A stretch of 60,071 bases of DNA from an uncultured Candidatus Peribacteria bacterium (GCA_964515645.1 CAZEVM010000001.1:1-60071); one strand, 5' to 3'; counted from the stretch's first letter, positions 3,870 to 59,739 are shown. Numbers and translations are program-made. The notes: generated by a model not told the origin, from the letters alone.

Positions 3870-4988
3870 ATGGTGCGACGACTCGCGTATCCTGCCTGGG
3901 TGTTCACCCTCCAGAGCAGCGGCCCACTCGGTCGGCGCGGCGTCATTCAGACTCCGCACGGCGAGCTTATCACTCCCCTCTTCTTCCCCGTGGGAACGAG
4001 CGGCGCGATGCGCGGACTGACGCACGAGCAACTGCTCGCGCTCGGCGCCGAGTGCCTGCTCGCCAATACGTACCACCTGCACGTGCAACCCGGCGAAGAC
4101 ATCGTGGCGCAGGCGGGCGGACTGCATTCGTTCATCAACTGGCAGAAGCCCATGCTCACCGACTCGGGCGGTTTCCAAGTGTTCTCGCTCAAGTCGATCC
4201 GCAAGATTACTGAAGAAGGCGTGGCGTTCCGTTCGCACCGCAGCGGCGCGCCGGTATTCCTCGGCCCGGTCGAGTCCACCACCATCCAGCACAAGCTCGG
4301 TGCTGACATCATTATGGTCTTCGATGAGTGTCCGCCCTCCACTGCACCGCGCAAGGCGCAGGTGGCCGCCGTGGACCGCACGCTCCGCTGGGCGAAGGTG
4401 TGTCGCGACACCCACCTGAAGCTCTGTGAGGAGAAGGGGCTTACGCCGGAGAAGCGACCCCTGCAGTTTGGCATCGTGCAGGGCGGTCTCGAGCGCGATT
4501 TGCGCGAAAAGTGCGCCGAGGAACTCCGCGCCATCGGTTTCGACGGGTACGCGGTGGGTGGGCTCGCTGTGGGCGAGACGGAGAATGAGATGTACGACGT
4601 GATCGATGTCGTCTGCCCGAAGTTGCCGGAAGACCAACCCCGCTACCTGATGGGAGTGGGACGTGTCAGCCAGCACCGCGAGTGCATTGCGCGCGGTATC
4701 GATTTCTTCGACTGCGTGCTGCCCATGCGCGAGGCGCGCCACGGCAACATCCACCTTTCAGATGGTTCCGTGCTCCGCATCCGCCGTACTGAGTACCAGA
4801 CGGACTTCTCTCCCATTGATCCCAACTCCCCTTCTCCGGTCGGTCGCGAGTATTCGCGCGCCTACTTGGCACATCTCTTCCGCGCTGGCGAGCGCCTGGC
4901 CGAGACCATCGCCTGCACGCAGAATATGGCTGTCACTCTGGAGGCGATGCGGAAACTCCGGGCGGAGATGGATGCGCAACAAAAGTAA
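3870..4988 (+). CDS. tgt: queuine tRNA-ribosyltransferase (Zn-site ligands absent)
   Basis: ORF 3762..4988. ATG 3870 (MVRRLAY...) is preferred because 3762 overlaps the divergent gene. Motifs LANTYHL, TDSGGFQV, GGLAVGE, YLMGVG, IDFFDCVLP. Confidence 0.9.
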   Translation: MVRRLAYPAWVFTLQSSGPLGRRGVIQTPHGELITPLFFPVGTSGAMRGLTHEQLLALGAECLLANTYHLHVQPGEDIVAQAGGLHSFINWQKPMLTDSGGFQVFSLKSIRKITEEGVAFRSHRSGAPVFLGPVESTTIQHKLGADIIMVFDECPPSTAPRKAQVAAVDRTLRWAKVCRDTHLKLCEEKGLTPEKRPLQFGIVQGGLERDLREKCAEELRAIGFDGYAVGGLAVGETENEMYDVIDVVCPKLPEDQPRYLMGVGRVSQHRECIARGIDFFDCVLPMREARHGNIHLSDGSVLRIRRTEYQTDFSPIDPNSPSPVGREYSRAYLAHLFRAGERLAETIACTQNMAVTLEAMRKLRAEMDAQQK

Positions 4989-23918: not shown

Positions 23919-24121
23919 CACTTCGCTCCCTGCGGGGAGCTTCGCGTGGCTAGCCATCAGTCATTCTTGGTGTACATGCGAAGTGTGCCCCGCGGAGCCG
24001 AAGGCGGAGTGGGGCTGTTCGAGCAGTCGATGGAACGTACAAAAGCCCAGAGGTATGTTGAGATATGCCTGTCGAATTGTTCCCTTACGTATTTTGGAAC
24101 AATTGAGACCAAGATTGTTCC

Positions 24122-24358
24122 ATGTTCTATGTCTATCTTCTGGCATTAGAAAATGGCCAATATTATGCAGGATATACTAAGAATCTCGAGTCTCGCCTGC
24201 AGAGACACGCGAACGGTTTTGTGAGAACAACGAGTCGTATCCATCCGAAGGAGCTTATCTTTTATGCAGCTTTTGTCAGTGAAGCGAAGGCTTTGGACTT
24301 TGAGAAATATCTTAAAAGCTCCTCCGGGTTCGCATTTCGCAATAAGCGGCTGCTTTGA
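24122..24358 (+). CDS. GIY-YIG domain protein (UPF0213-like, 78 aa)
   Basis: ORF 24122..24358. FYVYLLALENGQYYAGYTKNLESRLQRHANG matches the GIY-YIG core. Visibly lower GC than neighbours. Confidence 0.8.
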   Translation: MFYVYLLALENGQYYAGYTKNLESRLQRHANGFVRTTSRIHPKELIFYAAFVSEAKALDFEKYLKSSSGFAFRNKRLL

Positions 24359-24434
24359 GCGTCCTCCCTGTTTCACTGCCTTTTCTGGGTATCTACACGT
24401 TGCTCAAAGAATGTTTTTGGCCTAAAATCCGCCC

Positions 24435-24653
24435 ATGAATATGATTCTCATGTCCATCGAGGTCGTGGTGGCGCTCCTGCTCTGCCTGTCGATCCTCATC
24501 CAGCAGCGCGCTTCCGGTCTGTCCCAGAGCATGGGCGGCTCCGGCGTCACGTACGCCCAGCGCCGCGGCGCCGAAAAGGTGCTCTTCCAGGCCTCTGTCG
24601 TCCTGGGTGCCATTTTCTTCGTCATCCCGGTCCTGCAGTGGTTCATCGCCTAA
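24435..24653 (+). CDS. secG: preprotein translocase subunit SecG
   Basis: ORF 24435..24653. Two TM helices flanking the Gly-rich loop LIQQRASGLSQSMGGSG. TAAAAT ends 6 nt before the ATG. Confidence 0.85.
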   Translation: MNMILMSIEVVVALLLCLSILIQQRASGLSQSMGGSGVTYAQRRGAEKVLFQASVVLGAIFFVIPVLQWFIA

Positions 24654-28162: not shown

Positions 28163-28239
28163 GGGCCAGTAGCTCAGTTGGTTAGAGCTCCGGACTTATA
28201 CACCGGCGGTCGATGGTTCAACTCCATCCTGGCCCACCA
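28163..28239 (+). tRNA. tRNA-Ile (anticodon UAU)
   Basis: Manual cloverleaf: acceptor GGGCCAG/CUGGCCC, D-arm GCUC/GAGC, anticodon stem CCGG(A)/(A)CCGG with A31-A39 mismatch, loop CUUAUAC, T-arm GAUGG-UUCAACU-CCAUC, CCA encoded. Confidence 0.8.
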
Positions 28240-51080: not shown

Positions 51081-51113
51081 GAACCTCGCCATTCGTGGCG
51101 GGGTTCTTTTTTT
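51081..51113 (+). terminator. intrinsic terminator
   Basis: GAACCTCGCC-ATTCGT-GGCGGGGTTC followed by T7. Confidence 0.8.
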
Positions 51114-51129
51114 ACGTTTGGAGATGTTG

Positions 51130-51163
51130 TGGTGGCCCCTGACAGGCTCAAATCGAACCAAAT
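51130..51163 (-). repeat. degenerate copy of the tRNA-Phe 3' end (remnant C, distal island junction)
   Basis: tggtggcccctgacaggctcaaatcgaaccaaat versus tRNA-Phe tggtggcccagatcgggatcgaaccgatg (56993-57021) and remnant A (54346-54378). Confidence 0.55.
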
Positions 51164-51239
51164 TATTGCAGAATGTATAAAGATGTATGAGGCCCTGAAG
51201 GCTCTCCAAGAGATCGAGAGTGTATTCCCACGACGATGA
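51132..51239 (+). CDS. small junction ORF (35 aa) starting inside tRNA remnant C
   Basis: GTG 51132. VAPDRLKSNQIIAECIKMYEALKALQEIESVFPRR aligns with the N-terminus of ORF 54348..54539, with mostly third-position and conservative differences. Confidence 0.35.
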   Translation: MAPDRLKSNQIIAECIKMYEALKALQEIESVFPRR

Positions 51240-51243
51240 AGTA

Positions 51244-51290
51244 TTGACTAAATTTGTAATAATGCTTATATATTAATGAGCACTGTGCTC
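51244..51290 (+). promoter_or_regulatory. sigma70-type promoter plus 13-bp palindrome
   Basis: TTGACT-17 nt-TATATA (51244-51272), followed by GAGCAC-T-GTGCTC (51278-51290). Confidence 0.5.
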
Positions 51291-51333
51291 TCTCACAACA
51301 ACTCGCGACGTCCTCAATAAGAAGGAGTATCTC

Positions 51334-51651
51334 ATGGAGCAATCTCCCGTCAGCCTACCGTCAGTTATTACTGATACACAGAAGCTCGCTACGCTAGAAG
51401 AACAGCCTCCATGCTTCAGTGTCGGACCTACTCCTACAGGCCGTGGAGAAACCGTCCTGACGTGCGTCTGGGCAACGGACAAAGTCGATTACGCGGGCAG
51501 GAAGGTTTATGCAGTCGCGAGCTATTCCATTCACACGAACGAGGAGGGACAGACGACAAAATCACACGTCTTCAAATTGCCTCAGCTGCCCATTGTTATG
51601 TACGGACTCCAAAAAGCCTTCGATCACCTGATGCAGCTTCGAGGAGAATGA
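51334..51651 (+). CDS. hypothetical protein (105 aa)
   Basis: ORF 51334..51651. AAGGAG SD, own promoter and terminator. No recognisable motif. Confidence 0.65.
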   Translation: MEQSPVSLPSVITDTQKLATLEEQPPCFSVGPTPTGRGETVLTCVWATDKVDYAGRKVYAVASYSIHTNEEGQTTKSHVFKLPQLPIVMYGLQKAFDHLMQLRGE

Positions 51652-51684
51652 CCAAGAGATTCCCTGCTCTGCTTCTGCAGACGA

Positions 51685-51713
51685 AAACCCCATCCTAGCC
51701 GATGGGGTTTTTC
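51685..51713 (+). terminator. intrinsic terminator
   Basis: AAACCCCATC-CTAGCC-GATGGGGTTT followed by TT. Confidence 0.8.
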
Positions 51714-51807
51714 ATTTTCAGAATGAGAAGCGCGCAGCGCTACGGAAGGCTATAAAACGCGAGGCGGTCTCCTTCCCCCAAGGCCGAGAGCGCGAGATAA
51801 CACCGGC

Positions 51808-51987
51808 ATGATCGATCTGCAGAAGTTCAGGGAGATACTGAAGAGGCCGGACCTCAGTGATGAGGAGGCGACCCGGATCCGTGATCTCTACTACAAGCTG
51901 GCGGACCTAGGGATAGAGGGTCACCGGTACGCGAAGTGGCTGAAGGCGGGAGGGAAAGGGTCGAAGCCGGATTTGAAGTGGTTTTAG
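51808..51987 (+). CDS. possible small ORF (59 aa, below ORF-track cutoff)
   Basis: Own translation: MIDLQKFREILKRPDLSDEEATRIRDLYYKLADLGIEGHRYAKWLKAGGKGSKPDLKWF. No SD seen. Confidence 0.3.
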   Translation: MIDLQKFREILKRPDLSDEEATRIRDLYYKLADLGIEGHRYAKWLKAGGKGSKPDLKWF

Positions 51988-52022
51988 TATTAATCAGGAA
52001 GCAATCTGTTTAAATTGATAGT

Positions 52023-52595
52023 ATGCCTAGACCACCAGGTGTAAGAGTAAAGGGTTATCTTAGAGAATTAAATATGTGCAGAAGGTTGTGGCAATCCTGG
52101 AATGATTATTTACCAAATGAAATTGACCCTAAACCGAGTAATCCAGCCATTAAATATAAAGTATTATTAGAAGAGATTAGATTTTCATTACTTTTTCGGA
52201 TTGTTGTGCGTTTATATGCCTTAATGGAGCCAGACGAGAATAAATTCACCTTTGGTTATTGGCTTAATACTCTAAATCAAACTCCAAAAGTTAAGGAGAC
52301 TCTAAAAAAATATAAGTTACTTTTAAAATCGGAAGATTTTAAAAAGGTACTTAAAAATCGGCACAACTCCTATGCTCATAACTCAATCAAGGACAAGCAT
52401 TTCGGTCAAACATATAAATCAATGTTTAAGCTAAATGAAGTAATTGAAGAGTTGTACGATCAAATCGTATCGGATGGGCAGGCTGAGGCCATTCCCTGGA
52501 GTGGTGCTGCAGACACACACGTTTGGCATCCCTCAAATTGCCCTGGGGGATTTGAAGAAAATGTGCGTGAGTTCTTTATAAAATTTAACAGCTAA
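52023..52595 (+). CDS. HEPN/Abi-like protein (tentative)
   Basis: ORF 52023..52595. Markedly AT-rich. Helical, with an R-x5-H motif NRHNSYAH reminiscent of Abi-type HEPN (R-x-x-x-x-A-H). Confidence 0.6.
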   Translation: MPRPPGVRVKGYLRELNMCRRLWQSWNDYLPNEIDPKPSNPAIKYKVLLEEIRFSLLFRIVVRLYALMEPDENKFTFGYWLNTLNQTPKVKETLKKYKLLLKSEDFKKVLKNRHNSYAHNSIKDKHFGQTYKSMFKLNEVIEELYDQIVSDGQAEAIPWSGAADTHVWHPSNCPGGFEENVREFFIKFNS

Positions 52596-52628
52596 GATTA
52601 GAGAAGACGCTTCACACCAGCAGCTTAA

Positions 52629-54218
52629 TTAAACAGGCCGCTTCCATCCCCATACAGAATCCCATGTATACCCACTACCCAGTCTTTCAAATTTGGCAGA
52701 CCAATTCAGCCATTCGTTAGCCTTCTTTGTAAATTCCTCAAAATCAGTCATCTCGAAAACTGTTAGCAATAGCTTTCTGTAATCATCATACCATTCCGCA
52801 TTTTGCATTAATGGGATAACTCGTTCTTCATAAAATCGCCCATAATTCGGATATACCCAATGAGGGGCTCCGGGTTTGCCTTCGTCTAATTCCTGCTTCA
52901 TTTTCATGCAAAACAGCATGTTTACCTGGCAGCTTAAGTTTAAGAATTCTTCGTCGTTCAAATTACCCATTATTTCTTTCACAAGAAGATCTTTCTCGTA
53001 ACTCTTCCGCAATCTGTTAAACATGGAATCTGCGCCATGCAAAACATCCGGTGCAAAGAATGCGGCTGTTGACCAAATTCGTGTGGGCCTACGCTGATTG
53101 CCGTCACGCAGTTCTGTTCTGTAATTAATCAAGAAAGACAGTATGTCTCCTTTTTTTTCCTTAAGGGCGAAGATGCAAAAATAGTAGTAGGGGTTGTGCA
53201 GTATTGCTCTCGGAATAGATTTCCACGGAACCATTCGCGATGACGGCGCATGCATCCATAGCGCAGCAACATCTGCGAACTTATCAAGAACCATTTTTAA
53301 GCCATCCTTCCTGTCATATCTCACTGCATACAAACCAATCATAGTCAGGTTCAACATCTCACGCTGCATTTGCTCCACAGCTTCTCCTGCGTTGCTAGCC
53401 TCAGGGCTTTCAGCGGCTATCTTGGTTTCCCAGGTTTGTTTTAGATGAGAGATCTCTCGTTCAACCATGTCTTCCAAATTAAAACGATCGGTATCCGAGA
53501 AACTTCGGAGTTTTGAGACGATCTCTTCCCGAGTTACTGGCGGACGAACCACTCCAGTATGCTTTAGCACTTCAACTGAGCGCGCAGTGTCTTGAGACAG
53601 CTGCTCGGCCGCAGCATCAACATCTTTGCCGTGGCTCTTTTCCTTCACAAGCTCCCAGAACGTTTCCGTGGCGCCGAGCATTTGGGACATTCCCAGCATG
53701 AGGGTTTGTGAGTCGCCCTCAGGCTTCTTTTTGTAATTGTATTTGTGGGACTGTACTGACCAGAGGTGTTCCGTCACGGTACGAATCTGAATCTCACACA
53801 TGTATTCGGCCCCTACGTCTGTGCTGCTCACGACGATGTGGTGCCCCGTGTAGCCGTCCATCGTATCCTCGGGTGTGCTCTCCACGATGCGATAGCTGCC
53901 CTCCAAAAATGGAAGGAGGAGCTCGATCGCGCGTTGGCGGTCAGATCTGCAGTGACAGATCACACGGACCCCGGCAATGTCTTTGATGTCCCTAATGTCG
54001 GAAGTGGCAACGTTCGCAACCTTGGCGTAAACGGACGGGAAGTCCTTAATTTGCGGACGCATCGCGACCAAATCCATACGGGCACTCACCCCGTCGATGT
54101 CGACGGAAAGACGATGCTCCTCTAGATGGGAGCGAATATCGGCCTCGACCTTGCTCTGCAGGGCCCGATAGGACTCTGCGTATTGATCGTATTGCCGTCG
54201 CGCGTCGGCCTCTGTCAT
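52629..54218 (-). CDS. RelA/SpoT-like nucleotidyltransferase (small-alarmone-synthetase/toxSAS-like) fused to ~340-aa unknown C-terminal domain
   Basis: ORF 52629..54218. RPQIKDFPSVYAKV, DIAGVRVICH, DGYTGHHIVV and EIQIRTVTEHLW are the RelA_SpoT synthetase core motifs within the first ~190 aa. Confidence 0.8.
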   Translation of the reverse strand: MTEADARRQYDQYAESYRALQSKVEADIRSHLEEHRLSVDIDGVSARMDLVAMRPQIKDFPSVYAKVANVATSDIRDIKDIAGVRVICHCRSDRQRAIELLLPFLEGSYRIVESTPEDTMDGYTGHHIVVSSTDVGAEYMCEIQIRTVTEHLWSVQSHKYNYKKKPEGDSQTLMLGMSQMLGATETFWELVKEKSHGKDVDAAAEQLSQDTARSVEVLKHTGVVRPPVTREEIVSKLRSFSDTDRFNLEDMVEREISHLKQTWETKIAAESPEASNAGEAVEQMQREMLNLTMIGLYAVRYDRKDGLKMVLDKFADVAALWMHAPSSRMVPWKSIPRAILHNPYYYFCIFALKEKKGDILSFLINYRTELRDGNQRRPTRIWSTAAFFAPDVLHGADSMFNRLRKSYEKDLLVKEIMGNLNDEEFLNLSCQVNMLFCMKMKQELDEGKPGAPHWVYPNYGRFYEERVIPLMQNAEWYDDYRKLLLTVFEMTDFEEFTKKANEWLNWSAKFERLGSGYTWDSVWGWKRPV

Positions 54219-54270
54219 CTGAAGAAGAAGCTACACCACTAATAAGGATGCTGTCACCCCTCCAACGGGA

Positions 54271-54378
54271 AGGTCTCTTCCTAGATCCCCTCTTGCGTCC
54301 GCAGTAGGGTGAAAACGTACCATGTGGGATTCGTTTGTTTTTAGCTGGTGGCCCCAGTCGGGACCAATACGAACCAAT
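54271..54378 (-). repeat. copy of the 75-nt tRNA-Phe-proximal arm plus degenerate tRNA-Phe 3' end (remnant A)
   Basis: 54271-54345 aligns with 56917-56992 (about four fifths identical by eye). 54346-54378 tggtggccccagtcgggaccaatacgaaccaat aligns with the tRNA-Phe 3' end. Confidence 0.65.
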
Positions 54379-54539
54379 TATTATCTGCCTTTGTCAAAAT
54401 GCACAACGACCTTCGTGCGATTGAAGAGATCGTCGGCGTCTGGATCGGTCCAGACGGTCGGCTCATGATTACGGAAATCCACACCTACGGAGGTGACGGG
54501 CCCGAGGGTCGCCGAGATGCCGATAATGGCAAGGCGTGA
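54348..54539 (+). CDS. small junction ORF (63 aa) starting inside tRNA remnant A
   Basis: ORF 54348..54539 (GTG). N-terminus VAPVGTNTNQLLSAFVKMHNDLRAIEEIVGV is homologous to the 51132 ORF. It competes with antisense ORF 54381..54569. Confidence 0.4.
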   Translation: MAPVGTNTNQLLSAFVKMHNDLRAIEEIVGVWIGPDGRLMITEIHTYGGDGPEGRRDADNGKA

Positions 54540-54611
54540 CGCATAGCCCGACTCTACGGGCAAATGCAAGCGTGTCGTGGCATGAGCGTGCCAGGTGGAA
54601 AGTGTTGACGT

Positions 54612-56828
54612 TTATTTACTAGTCATTCCAGCCTGAACCTTTGAAAAAATAGATTGGCAGCGTGCTTGCCATTCAGTATTCCATTTTGTTCTGACTGGAT
54701 TTATAAGTTCTCTAAGATGATTCTTCTGTTTATCGTCAATTTTGCTAAATACCTCTGGACACTCGTCAAAGATTTCATCTAATGACTGAAGTACTTTTTC
54801 TCCTTGCTCAGAGTTTTTCACCCTGTCCATCTCTTGGAGCAATTTCACATAAACGTTGTAGATAAGATTTTGAAATTTACGGTCGTATAAATATTCTTTT
54901 AGCAGCAATAAAGCTGGTACAAATTCTTTGTGATTATCAACAGAAATGTGCCCAATAAATCTACTCAGTGCATCATCGTTTAGGAAAGTAGCTTGCTTTT
55001 CTTTATCTGAAAGAAGAGATATTATTTTTGGTTTGCAAACGAAGTGTTGCTGAATTGCCTTAGCAATTTCTGTTTTTTGATTAGCTGAAAATAGTTGAGG
55101 ATGAGACACAATGTTACTAAAAACACTCACAGCATGGACTTCGTTTCCCACTGTCTCTTGCCCAATTGTCGCCAAGGTATAGCGCTCTGCGAGTTTCTGC
55201 CTTAGGTGAGTATCTAATAGTCGATTATTTAAGACTCTGAAAATTAGCGTTTGGTCCAGAAGCTTGTAATTATCCCAAAGATACTCATCTAATGCATAAG
55301 CAATTGAGTTGTAAAAGTCCTTCTTGCTCGGCTCGAATTCCAATCTATTGAATGAGCCTAATAAAGTTTGAATTAGAGTCGTACAATTCTTCCTTTGAGT
55401 TTTATAAGCCTCAATCAAAGCTGTTGCATATTCAACAACAGCTTCTTTTTTCTTTTCTTTTTTCACTAATTCAATGGATGTCTCTAATTCACCTGTAATT
55501 AATGCAGTACGTAGTTCGTTTTCATGTTTTAAGCCCTTAGCCAGAATAGGCTTTTTAAAGTAAAGATATGTTTCGGCATCTGCCGTTGTAATACGACTTG
55601 TAAGTAACATGAACCTTTTAAAATCTTTTGAGCTTTTTATGGTCTCGATACTTTCGGGGGCGAACCAGTTTTCTTTTAACTCAGCATACTCTTTAGGGAA
55701 TTTATCTCTGAGTACCAGGATCTTTGCCAAGTAGGCGGGATTGTCCTTTATTATTGCAGCAACCTCGGTGTTCAGAGCTATAACAAGCGATGCAATAAAA
55801 TTATTAATGAATTGTTTTATCTCTCTTGGGTTATCAACAAAAGAGCTTTTGATAACTAAAATGACATCTTCATTATTAATTAACTTGTTAATTTCCCCAG
55901 TTTTTTCCAAAAGACTTTCAATGTATTTGTCCAAGTCGGTGTTGATAAATTCAGGTGACCAAATAGCTAGATTAAAAATCTTCCTCAAATACTCGGACGG
56001 GTTCATTGTGTCTATCAGGGTTTGCCTAAGCATTTCGTAGTGGCAAGGAACGAGGAAAATTATTTTTTTGTCTTCCATTCCATCTGTGTTGATTTCTAGA
56101 AAAGTTTTTAAAGTCGAAAGCATCTCGATCGCTACTTCACGCTCAACTCGGTCTAGGTTATCGACCACAATTATTACCTTACTCTCTCCCGAGTCGTTAA
56201 TTATTTTTGAAAAACATTCTTCGAAGAGTTCTGGTGAATCAATTTTATTCTTTGTGCCGTTAATCGCTGTGATAGATATAAAGTTTTTTGCATCGTCAGG
56301 GAGCAGTAGCTCCCTCGCAACGAAGCCAATTGCTGCTAAGAGAAATAATATTATTGATGCCGTGGTCCATTCGGGCATAAAAGTCCGAACAGCCATCCAT
56401 AACAACAATGTAATTGGGAGAAACAATTGTAACTTTAAAACACTCCACCGAATTTGAGGGCGCTCACCAATTTGTTCTGTGGTGTCGTAGTAAAATTGCT
56501 GTATTAGTTTATTAAGATAGCCCTTTCCAAGGTTTAAGTCTTTCGCTATCTGCATTAGAAGTTGCCTCTGTAATGAATCTTTCTGATACTTCCAGCAATC
56601 AAATTCAACCATCTTTGCGTTTGATATTCCCTCGTCCTTTAGCGCCTTTATGATTGTACTTTTCCCCGTTCCCCATGCGCCAAATAGGCCAATGGTATGA
56701 ACGCAACTTTCATTCTCCAAAATTGATTTAATCGAAGGAGCAATATGTTTGTGATAGAAGTCAAAATACCCATCGTCTGTGGAACGAATAGGAGCGTCTC
56801 TTAGAAATTTAAAGTCGGGCGGCGACAT
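54612..56828 (-). CDS. KAP-family P-loop NTPase with two inserted TM helices
   Basis: ORF 54612..56828. Walker A GAWGTGKST, TM pair LQLFLPITLLLWMAV / IILFLLAAIGFVA, Walker B IIVVDNLDR. AT-rich. Confidence 0.85.
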   Translation of the reverse strand: MSPPDFKFLRDAPIRSTDDGYFDFYHKHIAPSIKSILENESCVHTIGLFGAWGTGKSTIIKALKDEGISNAKMVEFDCWKYQKDSLQRQLLMQIAKDLNLGKGYLNKLIQQFYYDTTEQIGERPQIRWSVLKLQLFLPITLLLWMAVRTFMPEWTTASIILFLLAAIGFVARELLLPDDAKNFISITAINGTKNKIDSPELFEECFSKIINDSGESKVIIVVDNLDRVEREVAIEMLSTLKTFLEINTDGMEDKKIIFLVPCHYEMLRQTLIDTMNPSEYLRKIFNLAIWSPEFINTDLDKYIESLLEKTGEINKLINNEDVILVIKSSFVDNPREIKQFINNFIASLVIALNTEVAAIIKDNPAYLAKILVLRDKFPKEYAELKENWFAPESIETIKSSKDFKRFMLLTSRITTADAETYLYFKKPILAKGLKHENELRTALITGELETSIELVKKEKKKEAVVEYATALIEAYKTQRKNCTTLIQTLLGSFNRLEFEPSKKDFYNSIAYALDEYLWDNYKLLDQTLIFRVLNNRLLDTHLRQKLAERYTLATIGQETVGNEVHAVSVFSNIVSHPQLFSANQKTEIAKAIQQHFVCKPKIISLLSDKEKQATFLNDDALSRFIGHISVDNHKEFVPALLLLKEYLYDRKFQNLIYNVYVKLLQEMDRVKNSEQGEKVLQSLDEIFDECPEVFSKIDDKQKNHLRELINPVRTKWNTEWQARCQSIFSKVQAGMTSK

Positions 56829-56916
56829 GACAAGAAAAGTTTATACCTCTTCTCTGAAATTCAAAAAACTGCCGCCAATTAGAAGTCCTTCGATAAACTA
56901 ACCCTGCCCACTGGCC

Positions 56917-56992
56917 GGTCTCTTCCTTGTTCCCTCTTGCGCTCGTAGTAGGGTAAAAACGTACAATGTGGGATACGTTTGCGATTTTTAGC
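56917..56992 (-). repeat. 75-nt arm immediately 3' of tRNA-Phe (includes tRNA terminator hairpin)
   Basis: The minus strand reads ...GCAAACGTA-TCCCACATTG-TACGTTTTTAC.... Duplicated at 54271-54345. Confidence 0.65.
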
Positions 56993-57068
56993 TGGTGGCC
57001 CAGATCGGGATCGAACCGATGACACCTCCCTCTTCAGGGGAGTGCTCTACCAGCTGAGCTACCGGGCC
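56993..57068 (-). tRNA. tRNA-Phe (anticodon GAA)
   Basis: Manual cloverleaf of GGCCCGGUAGCUCAGCUGGUAGAGCACUCCCCUGAAGAGGGAGGUGUCAUCGGUUCGAUCCCGAUCUGGGCCACCA. Loop CUGAAGA, CCA encoded. Confidence 0.95.
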
Positions 57069-57356: not shown

Positions 57357-57364
57357 CCTAAATC

Positions 57365-57392
57365 TAGACAGCAATGCAGAAATTAGTATAGT
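57365..57392 (+). promoter_or_regulatory. sigma70-type promoter
   Basis: TAGACA-16 nt-TATAGT. The spacer core GCAGAAATTAGTAT is identical to 41117-41130. Confidence 0.5.
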
Positions 57393-57444
57393 AAACATTA
57401 CACGTCGTTCGCACCATTCCTCTTTTATACAGTTGGAGGTCTCC

Positions 57445-57678
57445 GTGACGTCTACCATTTCCGATGAGCTGCGCGGGCTTATTGAAGCGTACCGCTCACA
57501 ACATCAAGGATCCGTTGCCGCCTGGAGTGACACGAGCGGTTCCATCACCGACAACGCCGCGCGAGTCGAGACATCCGACCGGCTGCACGCTCAAGCAGAA
57601 GGCACCATGCGACGTATCCGTGAATACTGCGACGAGCACTCGATCGGTCCGGAAATCATCGAAGAACTTCTGCGCTGA
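57445..57678 (+). CDS. hypothetical small protein (77 aa)
   Basis: GTG 57445 preceded by GGAGG, in frame with the tail of ORF 57079..57678 (which spans tRNA-Ala and cannot be real upstream). Own terminator. Confidence 0.6.
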   Translation: MTSTISDELRGLIEAYRSQHQGSVAAWSDTSGSITDNAARVETSDRLHAQAEGTMRRIREYCDEHSIGPEIIEELLR

Positions 57679-57697
57679 GAGCGCGGAGCCCACCACT

Positions 57698-57726
57698 AGG
57701 CGGAGAGCGATCTCCGCCTGTTTTTG
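57698..57726 (+). terminator. intrinsic terminator
   Basis: AGGCGGAGA-GCGA-TCTCCGCCT followed by GTTTTT. Confidence 0.8.
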
Positions 57727-57799
57727 AATATATAAAAGAAAGCGAGACGTGTTGTCCCGCTTTTCTCGCTGGTGAGTATTCACCTGTACCATTTTTCAT

Positions 57800-57829
57800 A
57801 AAAAGAGCCCCGGCTGTTGCCGAGGCTCT
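57800..57829 (-). terminator. intrinsic terminator of 57851..58480
   Basis: The minus strand reads AGAGCCTCGGC-AACA-GCCGGGGCTCT followed by TTTTT. Confidence 0.7.
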
Positions 57830-57850
57830 AGGAACGTATTGATCTGACTG

Positions 57851-58480
57851 TCATCCTCCGCGAACTCGTTTTTGCTCCTTGCGAATTGCTTTCAGTTTTT
57901 GACGCCATTGTTCGTTTTCAGACATTTTCTTCATGGCATCGCTCTTAAGACTAGGCACATGCTCGATGATGCATCGACAATCCACGTCACTCGGCTCTTG
58001 TGCGAATAAAACCGCTGCAGCCTGCAGTCTCATCTTCTTGTTTTGGGCTACAATGGTTCGAAGTACAGCATTAGGAAGCGATCCTTGAAGCAGTCGCTCG
58101 GCGGCCGTGTCGGCGATCTCTTCTTCGAAGTAACGAAACTCTTTCATTAAAAACACGAGATCATCGTACGTCGGCTGCTGCTCAAGTATTCGCAAGCCCG
58201 TTTTCTTCCGCCAGGCGGCATATGGTTGCTTTAATATTAAACGCAACTCATGGTTTCGAGGATTCCGAGCAAGGAGCATTTCAGCGGCTTTTTCGATGTG
58301 TGGCCCGCCATAATATTGCCGCAGTAACCAACACAAATCTTGGTTCGTTGGGTTACGCTGCAAGTACGCTTCAACCGCTTCGTGATGAAGGTAGTCGACG
58401 TAACGAATCACGTAGCGGATCGCGGATTGAGAAGGATTCTTAGATAAAATATCCGCCCACATGTTTTCGAGTTTCGACAT
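57851..58480 (-). CDS. helical-repeat (HEAT/ARM-like) protein, unknown function
   Basis: ORF 57851..58480. Repeated units LQRNPTNQDL..., LARNPRNHEL..., LEQQPTYDDL.... Lower GC than the flanks. AT-rich promoter patch at 58500-58569. Confidence 0.65.
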   Translation of the reverse strand: MSKLENMWADILSKNPSQSAIRYVIRYVDYLHHEAVEAYLQRNPTNQDLCWLLRQYYGGPHIEKAAEMLLARNPRNHELRLILKQPYAAWRKKTGLRILEQQPTYDDLVFLMKEFRYFEEEIADTAAERLLQGSLPNAVLRTIVAQNKKMRLQAAAVLFAQEPSDVDCRCIIEHVPSLKSDAMKKMSENEQWRQKLKAIRKEQKRVRGG

Positions 58481-58569
58481 TTCGACCTCATTTTTAGGGA
58501 AGTTGGAGTGAACGAACGCTATATTGACATTATAGTAAATTATTTAATAGTCAATATATTTTATGTGCG

Positions 58570-59739
58570 TTACAAACTGGCCCGGATCGCCTCCTCCAGC
58601 TTTCGGTTCTTCCAACCCACAAAGTGCAGCACAGCGTGCAGCGGATCGGTGAGTGCGAGGAACACCTTCAAGTCGGCAGCCAAGCGCATGGCGTATCCCA
58701 GCAAGCCGAAGACATTCAACGGACCGAAGACGACAGCCGCCCAGCGCTCGCCGATGGGCAGAGCGAATTTTGGCTTGGGTGCAGCGTAGGTGCGCGGCCG
58801 GCCGGAGAGGATCTTGGCCAAGAGATCGGCATCGTAGATGGCCGTCTGGGCCATGCCCGCATAGGGCGTCTTGGCACAGTCACCGAGGACGTACACGTTC
58901 TGCAGGCCCTGAGCGCGCAAATCGTTGTCCACTAAGGCGCGTCCCTTGGGGTCGAGCGACAAGCCGGTGACACGAGAAAGGAGCGAGTGGGCCTTCACGC
59001 CCGCGGTCCAGACGATGGTGCCGGCTTCAATTTGCGTATCGGCCAGAAGGAGCTTGCCCGGCTCACAGCCGGTGACCTTCTTGCCCACCATCACCTGCAC
59101 GCCGATCTTCTCGAGTCGCTCGTGCGAACGCTTGGAGACGATCTCCGGCATCGACGGGAGGATACGATCAGCCGCCTCAATGAGCAGAACGTGCGGCGGG
59201 CGCTTACGCAGGTCTTCCAAGTGCACCACCAGCTCGGCCGCCGTCTCCACGCCCGTCGGTCCGCCGCCGATCACGAGCACGCGCTCTGAGGTCTCCTTTT
59301 CGTGCTGCGGCAAGACGTGGTGGTTCGTCAGCAAGGCATCGAAGTGACGGCGCAGATGCACGGCCTCCACCACGTGGCTCATGGTGAGCGCGTTCTCCTT
59401 CATGCCCGGAATGCCGAAGTACGCCGGCTCCGCTCCGGGAGCGAGCACCACGATGTCGTAGGGGTAGGCACCCAGGCGGCCTTGGGCGACGTTCTTCGCC
59501 GTATCGACCGATTCGATGGTATCGATCATGGTCGTGACCGACCGCGGCAACATCTCCTCTAAGGTCAGGCAGACGCGCGAGAAGGCATCTGAGCGGATGA
59601 TGCGGTAGAGCGAGCCGTAGTACTCCAGCCACGGCCTGGGGCTGACCAACGTGACGGCAAAGTGGGCATTCTTCGCCAGGCGCTGGGCCAGGCGAACGCC
59701 CGCGAATCCCCCGCCGACGACAAGCACTTTTTGCGCCAT
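58570..59739 (-). CDS. ndh: type II NADH dehydrogenase (NDH-2)
   Basis: ORF 58570..59739. Two Rossmann motifs VVGGGFAG and VIGGGPTGVE. GDCA motif. Confidence 0.9.
   Translation of the reverse strand: MAQKVLVVGGGFAGVRLAQRLAKNAHFAVTLVSPRPWLEYYGSLYRIIRSDAFSRVCLTLEEMLPRSVTTMIDTIESVDTAKNVAQGRLGAYPYDIVVLAPGAEPAYFGIPGMKENALTMSHVVEAVHLRRHFDALLTNHHVLPQHEKETSERVLVIGGGPTGVETAAELVVHLEDLRKRPPHVLLIEAADRILPSMPEIVSKRSHERLEKIGVQVMVGKKVTGCEPGKLLLADTQIEAGTIVWTAGVKAHSLLSRVTGLSLDPKGRALVDNDLRAQGLQNVYVLGDCAKTPYAGMAQTAIYDADLLAKILSGRPRTYAAPKPKFALPIGERWAAVVFGPLNVFGLLGYAMRLAADLKVFLALTDPLHAVLHFVGWKNRKLEEAIRASL

Follow-up and report, generated by a model that had tools for sequence, protein, structure and literature searches.

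Tandem integrase-less islets of one family at the tRNA-Phe gene of a Candidatus Peribacteria bacterium

The surroundings of the tRNA-Phe gene of an uncultured Candidatus Peribacteria bacterium were analyzed in a 60,071-nucleotide (nt) stretch of DNA (GCA_964515645.1 CAZEVM010000001.1:1-60071), which is referred to here as the window and whose numbering is used unless another contig is named. Two islets of one family, A and B, lie in tandem beside this gene between positions 51130 and 57068, and islet A arrived after islet B. This 5.9-kb stretch is probably a tandem array of two small non-autonomous integrative elements, recombining within GGGCCACCA, the last 9 nt of tRNA-Phe, through a recombinase acting in trans. 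Read from the tRNA, the order is arm, cargo A, remnant, arm, cargo B, remnant, and host terminator (Table 1). Islet A (54346-56992, 2.65 kb) begins at the base after the CCA end, and its insertion left tRNA-Phe intact; islet B (51130-54345) spans 3.2 kb. The elements are laid out alike, with a 92-nt arm on the tRNA side, 2-2.3 kb of AT-rich, defence-type cargo, a distal module, and a 9-nt core that is the only sequence common to all junctions. The distal module consists of an open reading frame (ORF) of 63 amino acids (aa) and a tail roughly 65 nt long, to which the B type adds a 59-aa ORF. As an earlier account of the locus (the preliminary description) had remarked, the interiors are more AT-rich than their surroundings, with a GC content of 0.29-0.45 over most of both islets versus about 0.62 in the flanks. 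The GC content at third codon positions (GC3) is 0.32-0.54 in the cargo genes versus about 0.8 in host genes, and the low values of both measures indicate a foreign composition. The interiors of islets A and B are unrelated to each other. The gene for Obg, which adjoins the locus, places the host in Candidatus Peribacteria, within the candidate phyla radiation (CPR).

Table 1. Features of the tRNA-Phe locus, listed from the tRNA outward (L001, L004, L081, L082, and L088 are relatives described in the text)
Feature	Position	Strand	Remarks
tRNA-Phe(GAA), intact	56993-57068	minus	ARAGORN; Rfam tRNA, 65 bits
Final 9 nt of tRNA-Phe, GGGCCACCA (TGGTGGCCC on the plus strand); proposed crossover core on the attL side	56993-57001		9-mer exact at 54346 and 51130
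Arm of islet A (putative element-derived P' arm), directly after the tRNA 3' end	56901-56992		repeat alignment and relatives
KAP-family P-loop NTPase, cargo of islet A, 738 aa, GC3 0.36	54612-56828	minus	Pfam KAP_NTPase, 5.5e-26
Conserved non-coding tail of the distal module of islet A	54540-54604		ends at GTGCCAGGTGGA; alignment of window, L004, L081, L082, L001
Conserved 63-aa ORF of islet A	54348-54539	plus	GTG start inside the tRNA-derived core; alternative ATG at 54399
Internal remnant: core 54346-54354 and tRNA-derived sequence encoding the N terminus of the 63-aa ORF	54346-54378		
Arm of islet B (putative P' arm)	54256-54345		88% identical to the tRNA-proximal arm of L088
529-aa protein, cargo of islet B: N-terminal RelA/SpoT domain and uncharacterized C-terminal part of about 360 aa	52629-54218	minus	
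HEPN (AbiU2-like) protein, cargo of islet B, 190 aa, GC3 0.32	52023-52595	plus	Pfam HEPN_AbiU2
Backbone of islet B: conserved leader and 59-aa ORF (51808-51987)	51727-51987	plus	
105-aa ORF in islet B	51334-51651	plus	sits where L001 and L088 carry the module tail
Terminal remnant: core 51130-51138 and truncated 36-codon small ORF; putative attR of islet B	51129-51239	plus	
Terminator of the host 179-aa gene, outer chromosomal boundary (B')	51081-51106	plus	

Direct repeats that include the tRNA 3' end flank the islets: the exact 9-nt core is present three times in the same orientation, with degenerate tRNA-derived extensions in the remnants. The recurrence of the tRNA-Phe 3' end at 54346 and 51130, first noted in the preliminary description with coordinates and sequences that all proved correct, was confirmed, and the 9-mer TGGTGGCCC is exact at both positions. 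This 9-mer has 4 copies in the window versus 0.45 expected, 3 of which are co-oriented within 6 kb, and a 32-nt remnant pattern has 2 copies versus 0 expected. Alignment of the arm and tRNA 3' end (56901-57019) with 54256-54372 gave a score of 119, compared with a mean of 15.5 and a maximum of 26 for shuffled sequences (z = 49). The arm repeat, previously given as 75 nt, is real but longer, the 92 nt at 56901-56992 being repeated at 54256-54345 with 84% identity, and the arm pattern was found at two places only within the window. Between the two remnants, the alignment extends over 38 nt (score, 34; shuffle maximum, 26; z = 9.8). The tRNA-derived part taken alone is weak: the terminal remnant (remnant 1) matches the tRNA in the 9-mer and a short flank only (score, 23; shuffle maximum, 24), and the corresponding part of the internal remnant (remnant 2) scores 24, versus a shuffle maximum of 25 in 8 kb. 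The expectation that the repeated segments would outscore shuffled controls was thus borne out for the arm with the tRNA end and for the remnant pair and failed for the tRNA-derived part by itself, so that the case rests on the contiguity of the arm, the counts of the 9-mer and of the 32-nt pattern, and conservation in other genomes.

The arms are conserved in primary sequence, with 81-89% identity between genomes (arms next to tRNA-Phe in L001, L004, and L088). A hairpin noted earlier in the arm (AAACGTA-N10-TACGTTT) is found only in the tRNA-proximal copy; the internal arm has an imperfect version, and relatives do not preserve it. The arm was also considered as an RNA structure and this was rejected, since covariation gave no support and the hairpin is not maintained. 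No Rfam family matched in the end module, and a scan for sigma-70 promoters and terminators gave nothing above background. A TACAAT/TATAAT box in the arm faces the core, with the best -35 candidate at 19-nt spacing, and was not relied upon.

Past the 9-nt core, the remnants, described earlier as degenerate copies of the tRNA 3' end, are not decaying freely; they carry the N-terminal coding sequence of a conserved element gene, the 63-aa ORF. The agreement of the two remnants past the tRNA part, another observation of the preliminary description, was reproduced and is explained by this gene, because the shared sequence GAACCAA(A)TTATT encodes its N terminus (N-Q-L/I-L/I). Among the three full-length copies of the ORF, mismatches at the first, second, and third codon positions number 7/5/24 and 10/5/25, leucine codons switch between codon families (TTA, CTT, and CTA), and the same stop codon is used in three lineages. 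The bias of the mismatches toward third positions indicates that the 63-aa ORF is coding, and, judged by these codon patterns, the small ORF is coding and under selection. It is annotated as a gene in NCBI records (P0001 and P0002). An antisense 62-aa ORF (54381-54569) was rejected, as its copies show 3-6 synonymous versus 25-28 non-synonymous codon differences. The 63-aa protein had no Pfam, NCBIfam, or PHROG match, and an exhaustive profile search returned its own family only, besides repeat proteins sharing a 'PDG-L' beta-hairpin motif that were regarded as spurious relatives. The AlphaFold model of the protein is of low confidence (predicted local distance difference test [pLDDT], 64). Short forms of the small ORF, with 36-41 codons, occupy most terminal positions (remnant 1 of the window, L001, and L088), and the same 23-nt deletion is common to L001 and L088. 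Between elements with different cargo, homology stops at GTGCCAGGTGGA, the end of the module tail.

The same ends were found at the same tRNA-Phe gene in four independent Peribacteria assemblies (L001, L004, L088, and L081-L083), which carry one or two islets and a different cargo in each case. L001 has one islet, encoding a SIR2_2 protein and a trypsin-like protease. L004 has two, split by an internal arm-remnant-ORF module, with unknown ORFs and a ParE/Phd pair as cargo, and the single islet of L088 carries a Pycsar system made up of PycTM and cyclase-like proteins. The short contigs L081 and L082/L083 hold the terminal module only, and one of them carries an AAA_15/21 ATPase; the terminal modules of L081 and L082 are 97.7% identical, and the contigs diverge right after GTGCCAG(G/A)TGG. 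The outer end of the older islet of L004 has been rearranged: about 2.3 kb (L004:1636-4056, encoding a repeat protein, a Nudix protein, and a 243-aa ORF) occupies the place where the close relative L081 has the terminal remnant and small ORF, and of the module tail, just the final 65 nt remain (3992-4056).

The closest relative, L088 (89% aa identity in Obg), has a single element of the islet B type directly beside the tRNA, laid out as tRNA, arm, cargo, 59-aa ORF, and remnant only, with unrelated cargo. Because L088 holds the inner islet type only, the KAP islet (A) is the later insertion, as a model of accretion predicts. The idea put forward earlier, that two related elements integrated in succession, is therefore supported by the comparative data, namely, the same ends with other cargo and the lack of islet A in L088. 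A search for an empty tRNA-Phe site, which had been suggested as a check, found none among the close relatives examined. L003, a low-GC Peribacteria metagenome-assembled genome, was rejected as an empty site and is not a valid control, since its tRNA-Phe lies in the opposite orientation in a different neighborhood and gene order. In L003, a second tRNA-Phe-like gene (1754-1859) follows tRNA-Phe and tRNA-Ala; it has an interruption of about 40 nt that separates the D-arm from the anticodon stem, was not called by ARAGORN, and could be a pseudogene or contain an intron-like insertion. The 179-aa protein of the outer flank had no relatives in a search of genome contigs. Look-ups by exact sequence of four window proteins, and of the small ORF of the window itself (P0001), gave no match by which the contig might have been extended.

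At the junctions, identity between loci is limited to TGGTGGCCC and starts exactly where the tRNA ends in CCA. An arm always lies left of the tRNA core and of the internal cores, and the left neighbor of a terminal core is invariably an unrelated host terminator (window 51081-51106, L088, L081, and L084). That the terminal remnants abut a host terminator, and never an arm, fits an attR of the form P-O-B' and argues against a duplicated junction block. Read from the sequence, the junction pattern is that of an attL B-O-P' and an attR P-O-B', in which crossover would take place inside GGGCCACCA, the arm would be element DNA, and the ORF side would be the other arm of attP. In the internal remnant, the putative attR of islet A runs directly into the arm of islet B.

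Scans of the islet ORFs against Pfam, PADLOC, NCBIfam, and PHROG revealed no recombinase in 51130-57068. Thirty further window ORFs of 187-760 aa, which are housekeeping genes or have no family match, likewise include none; those identified include MiaA, ClpP, Tgt, pyruvate kinase, enolase, DnaK, and GAPDH. No recombinase domain was detected in the islets of L001, L004, and L088 either, so that the absence reported earlier for this locus holds for every complete islet examined (integrase absent in 6/6). Searches of 5.8 billion proteins, a 1.84 billion-protein representative library, the JGI metagenome collection, and IMG/VR yielded no autonomous relative that has the arm, the remnant, or the small ORFs. 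The first remnant search pattern was too strict and would have missed L081.

We propose that the elements arrive in circular form and that their attP (arm-core-ORF) undergoes site-specific recombination with the 3' end of tRNA-Phe, which would regenerate the tRNA. A newcomer would insert beside the tRNA and thereby push older elements outward. The recombinase, most likely of the tyrosine type, would be encoded elsewhere, on the chromosome or by a helper element, given that all of the islets lack such a gene. A role of the 63-aa protein as a recombination accessory or directionality factor is a guess. It is conceivable, although unlikely, that Peribacteria and perhaps other lineages possess a dedicated cassette-capture system at tRNA-Phe, in which a recombinase of the genome or of a helper phage or plasmid moves 2-4 kb integrase-less defence cassettes at the CCA end, the 63-aa ORF being the accessory or directionality factor of the cassette. 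Such a system would work in an integron-like manner with the tRNA as docking site; the 63-aa coding sequence would begin inside the crossover core and would come to lie behind an arm only in the circular or tandem form.

The preliminary description had left a choice between decayed elements and cassettes mobilized in trans, and the evidence leans toward non-autonomous elements that are still exchanged. At four-fold sites, the 59-aa ORF is identical between the window and L088 at 17/19 positions (89.5%), compared with 52.5% of 221 sites in Obg and 42.6% in the adjacent 179-aa host gene; by a binomial estimate, this excess has a P value of about 8e-4. The 81-nt leader of the 59-aa ORF is about 95% identical between the same two genomes. 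The four-fold sites of the 59-aa ORF are thus far less diverged than those of Obg, suggesting that the B backbone was exchanged between lineages much more recently than the hosts diverged. Recent exchange of the B backbone is supported but not proven by this comparison, and it would not follow if the silent sites were under unusual constraint.

Several observations weigh against elements that are moved in trans. No integrase, helper element, circular junction, or truly empty tRNA-Phe site was found in the islets and relatives examined, the remnant and arm patterns and the small-ORF profiles had no match in the JGI metagenome collection or IMG/VR, and the known loci number only about six. Truncated forms make up half of the small-ORF copies. 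The four-fold-site test comprises 19 sites, a small sample, and the 63-aa ORF shows no excess of synonymous conservation between the window and L004 (72%, versus 69% for Obg). Furthermore, backbone similarity tracks host relatedness, L088 being closer than L001, a pattern that is also compatible with vertical descent and gene conversion. The defence role of the cargo is drawn from family membership only.

Alternatively, the islets may be immobile relics, old autonomous elements that have lost their integrases. Their cargo would now be turned over solely through homologous recombination, for instance following DNA uptake, and the conserved ends together with the tRNA would serve as homology arms. 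We regard this as the main rival, if a somewhat unlikely one. It accords with the lack of an integrase in the islets and the long window ORFs, with the dependence of backbone similarity on host relatedness, and with the exact swapping of cargo between conserved blocks; the truncation of small ORFs at most terminal positions fits as well, and the 23-nt deletion in L001 and L088 suggests inheritance in place. However, independent decay is not expected to yield six of six islets without an integrase and with well-conserved ends, and the arms have kept their 81-89% identity across genomes that share 75-80% of their Obg DNA sequence and have nearly saturated four-fold sites. The presence of islet A beside the tRNA in the window and its absence from L088 call for an integration-like event, and a short form of the ORF is found in a 70%-GC organism, both of which are difficult to reconcile with relics. 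Mobilization of non-autonomous elements in trans remains our preferred reading.

A platform belonging to the host, in which a host-encoded junction block (small ORF, remnant, and arm) forms an integron-like or hotspot array, the cargo alone moves, and the linkage to the tRNA is incidental, is very unlikely. The cargo boundaries do match the inner edges of the conserved blocks, and all known copies are at a single locus within a single clade. Against this, the first and last units are half-modules split at the CCA end of the tRNA, with the arm only at the tRNA and the ORF and core only at the distal side; neither an intI-like gene nor attC-like hairpins are present, and a module has also been found in an unrelated contig of high GC content. 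If the tRNA 3' end and its trailer had been copied locally, through segmental duplication or unequal crossing-over, or if the similarity were due to chance, this might account for a tRNA-derived part that on its own does not rise above shuffled controls. This explanation is effectively refuted by the score of the arm, by counts of the 9-mer and 32-nt pattern far above expectation, by interiors that are mutually unrelated and compositionally foreign, and by the retention of the same ends across five other assemblies.

Collectively, the islets are a new family within a known kind of system, tandem accretion like that of cis-mobilizable elements (CIMEs). Elements related to ICESt1, an integrative and conjugative element (ICE), and CIMEs of Streptococcus thermophilus show tandem accretion at tRNA genes (review, PMC5704250). 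As in CIME arrays, elements stand side by side at a tRNA 3' end with att repeats between them and the newer one next to the target gene, and the islets keep attL and attR while having no integration and transfer genes. Unlike CIMEs, the arrays have no functional partner in cis, whether an ICE or an integrative and mobilizable element, here or in relatives, and no autonomous parent was found; the islets measure only 2-4 kb, every known member is without an integrase, and the conserved small ORF starts inside the att core. We know of no conjugative elements documented in CPR bacteria, to which the host belongs. Tycheposons of Prochlorococcus are cargo elements at tRNA genes of streamlined genomes and are defined by a tyrosine or large serine recombinase that they encode themselves, together with a replication module; a partial tRNA copy between neighboring tycheposons has been read as successive integrations pushing the older element inward, and degenerate remnants occur in islands (bioRxiv 10.1101/2020.12.28.424599). 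The islets resemble them in their tRNA gene target and in their tandem and degenerate arrays, but they have neither recombinase nor replication module, bear no sequence relationship to them, and carry defence-type cargo rather than genes for nutrient acquisition. Mobile integron cassettes are similar in being short, recombinase-less units of mostly one or two genes that accumulate at one site with the newest proximal. In contrast to integrons, the islets have no intI, attI, or Pc, their ends are direct repeats (arm and core) instead of attC hairpins, and conserved small genes are part of the islets themselves. Integrative mobile elements exploiting Xer (IMEX; CTX, VGJ, and TLC at dif) have no integrase, use Xer recombinases encoded elsewhere, and stack in tandem with degenerate copies of the target site. 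The islets are likewise integrase-less, stacked with degenerate target copies, and presumably dependent on an outside recombinase; however, their target is the 3' end of tRNA-Phe and not dif-like, a Xer-type palindrome is not evident, and the involvement of a host recombinase is a supposition only. With respect to the features of tRNA-integrated islands, insertion at a tRNA 3' end, direct repeats, atypical composition, and variable presence were all found, and an integrase of their own was not. No paper describing such elements in Peribacteria or Patescibacteria was found in the literature.

CPR bacteria have tiny genomes, and little is known of how they acquire genes and defend themselves against phages. 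The locus described here is a conserved tRNA-Phe hotspot of Peribacteria, at which single defence-type modules (KAP NTPase, RelA/SpoT with HEPN, SIR2, Pycsar, ParE, and AAA ATPase) appear to be swapped between lineages on minimal elements without a recombinase. If the islets are mobilized in trans, they would offer a simple system in which to find the recombinase and to study horizontal transfer in CPR bacteria; if they are only relics, they would still be a clean example of tandem accretion and a marker for new defence genes in these genomes.

The cargo of islet A, the KAP-family NTPase, passes the gathering score of Pfam PF07693 (91.9 bits; cut-off, 20) and also matches phrog_8614. It has weak N-terminal matches to QatA and PifA. 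It was not identified as QatA, scoring 68 bits versus an NCBIfam cut-off of 600, and the partners QatB, QatC, and QatD are not in the islet. In islet B, the 529-aa protein matches Pfam RelA_SpoT (6.4e-14; 52.6 bits, versus a cut-off of 27) and PADLOC PDC-S33 (2.9e-11), and its best PDB matches are the small alarmone synthetases RelQ/YjbM and RelP/YwaC. Its N-terminal domain is predicted to be small alarmone synthetase-like, with putative toxSAS-type toxin activity. The HEPN protein matches PF18734 marginally (28.1 bits; gathering score, 26.8). By their families, the cargo proteins may be anti-phage defence proteins or toxin-type modules.

The backbone of islet B that contains the 59-aa ORF is 92.7% identical in nucleotide sequence to that of L088 and 86.8% identical to that of L001. 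AlphaFold2 predicts three helices for the 59-aa protein (pLDDT, 71), which had no PDB match with an E value below 3. The sole viral match to this ORF, L087, was rejected as a chance match inside a tape-measure-like protein. In window 51240-51726, the 105-aa ORF and a terminator-like hairpin take the place of the module tail of L001 and L088, which indicates that an indel has occurred within the islet B backbone.

A shortened small ORF is also present in ENA contigs of 70% GC, where it lies next to a TIGR02996-like gene and differs from that of L081 by 9 synonymous and 5 non-synonymous codon changes. This suggests that the element family may not be confined to Peribacteria. In these contigs (L084:839-960, also L085 and L086), a 40-aa small ORF and a tRNA-like core follow a host terminator, the contigs being too short to show a tRNA.

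Elsewhere in the window, the 3' ends of tRNA-Gln, tRNA-Val, tRNA-Ile, and tRNA-Ala were not found repeated downstream. Directly after tRNA-Val, positions 23919-24650 show a dip in GC content and short ORFs of low GC3, and no repeat of the tRNA-Val 3' end was detected there. Downstream of tRNA-Ala, window 57357-58570 has a lower GC content (0.44-0.49) and encodes a 209-aa repeat protein that is 29% identical to L004 1697-2383. L001 and L004 hold other genes at this place, which points to a second variable spot, at which a repeat of the tRNA-Ala 3' end was not found. Finally, a tRNA-Ile with the anticodon TAT (UAU), uncommon in bacteria, is present at 28163-28239 and in one relative (L002:686-762).

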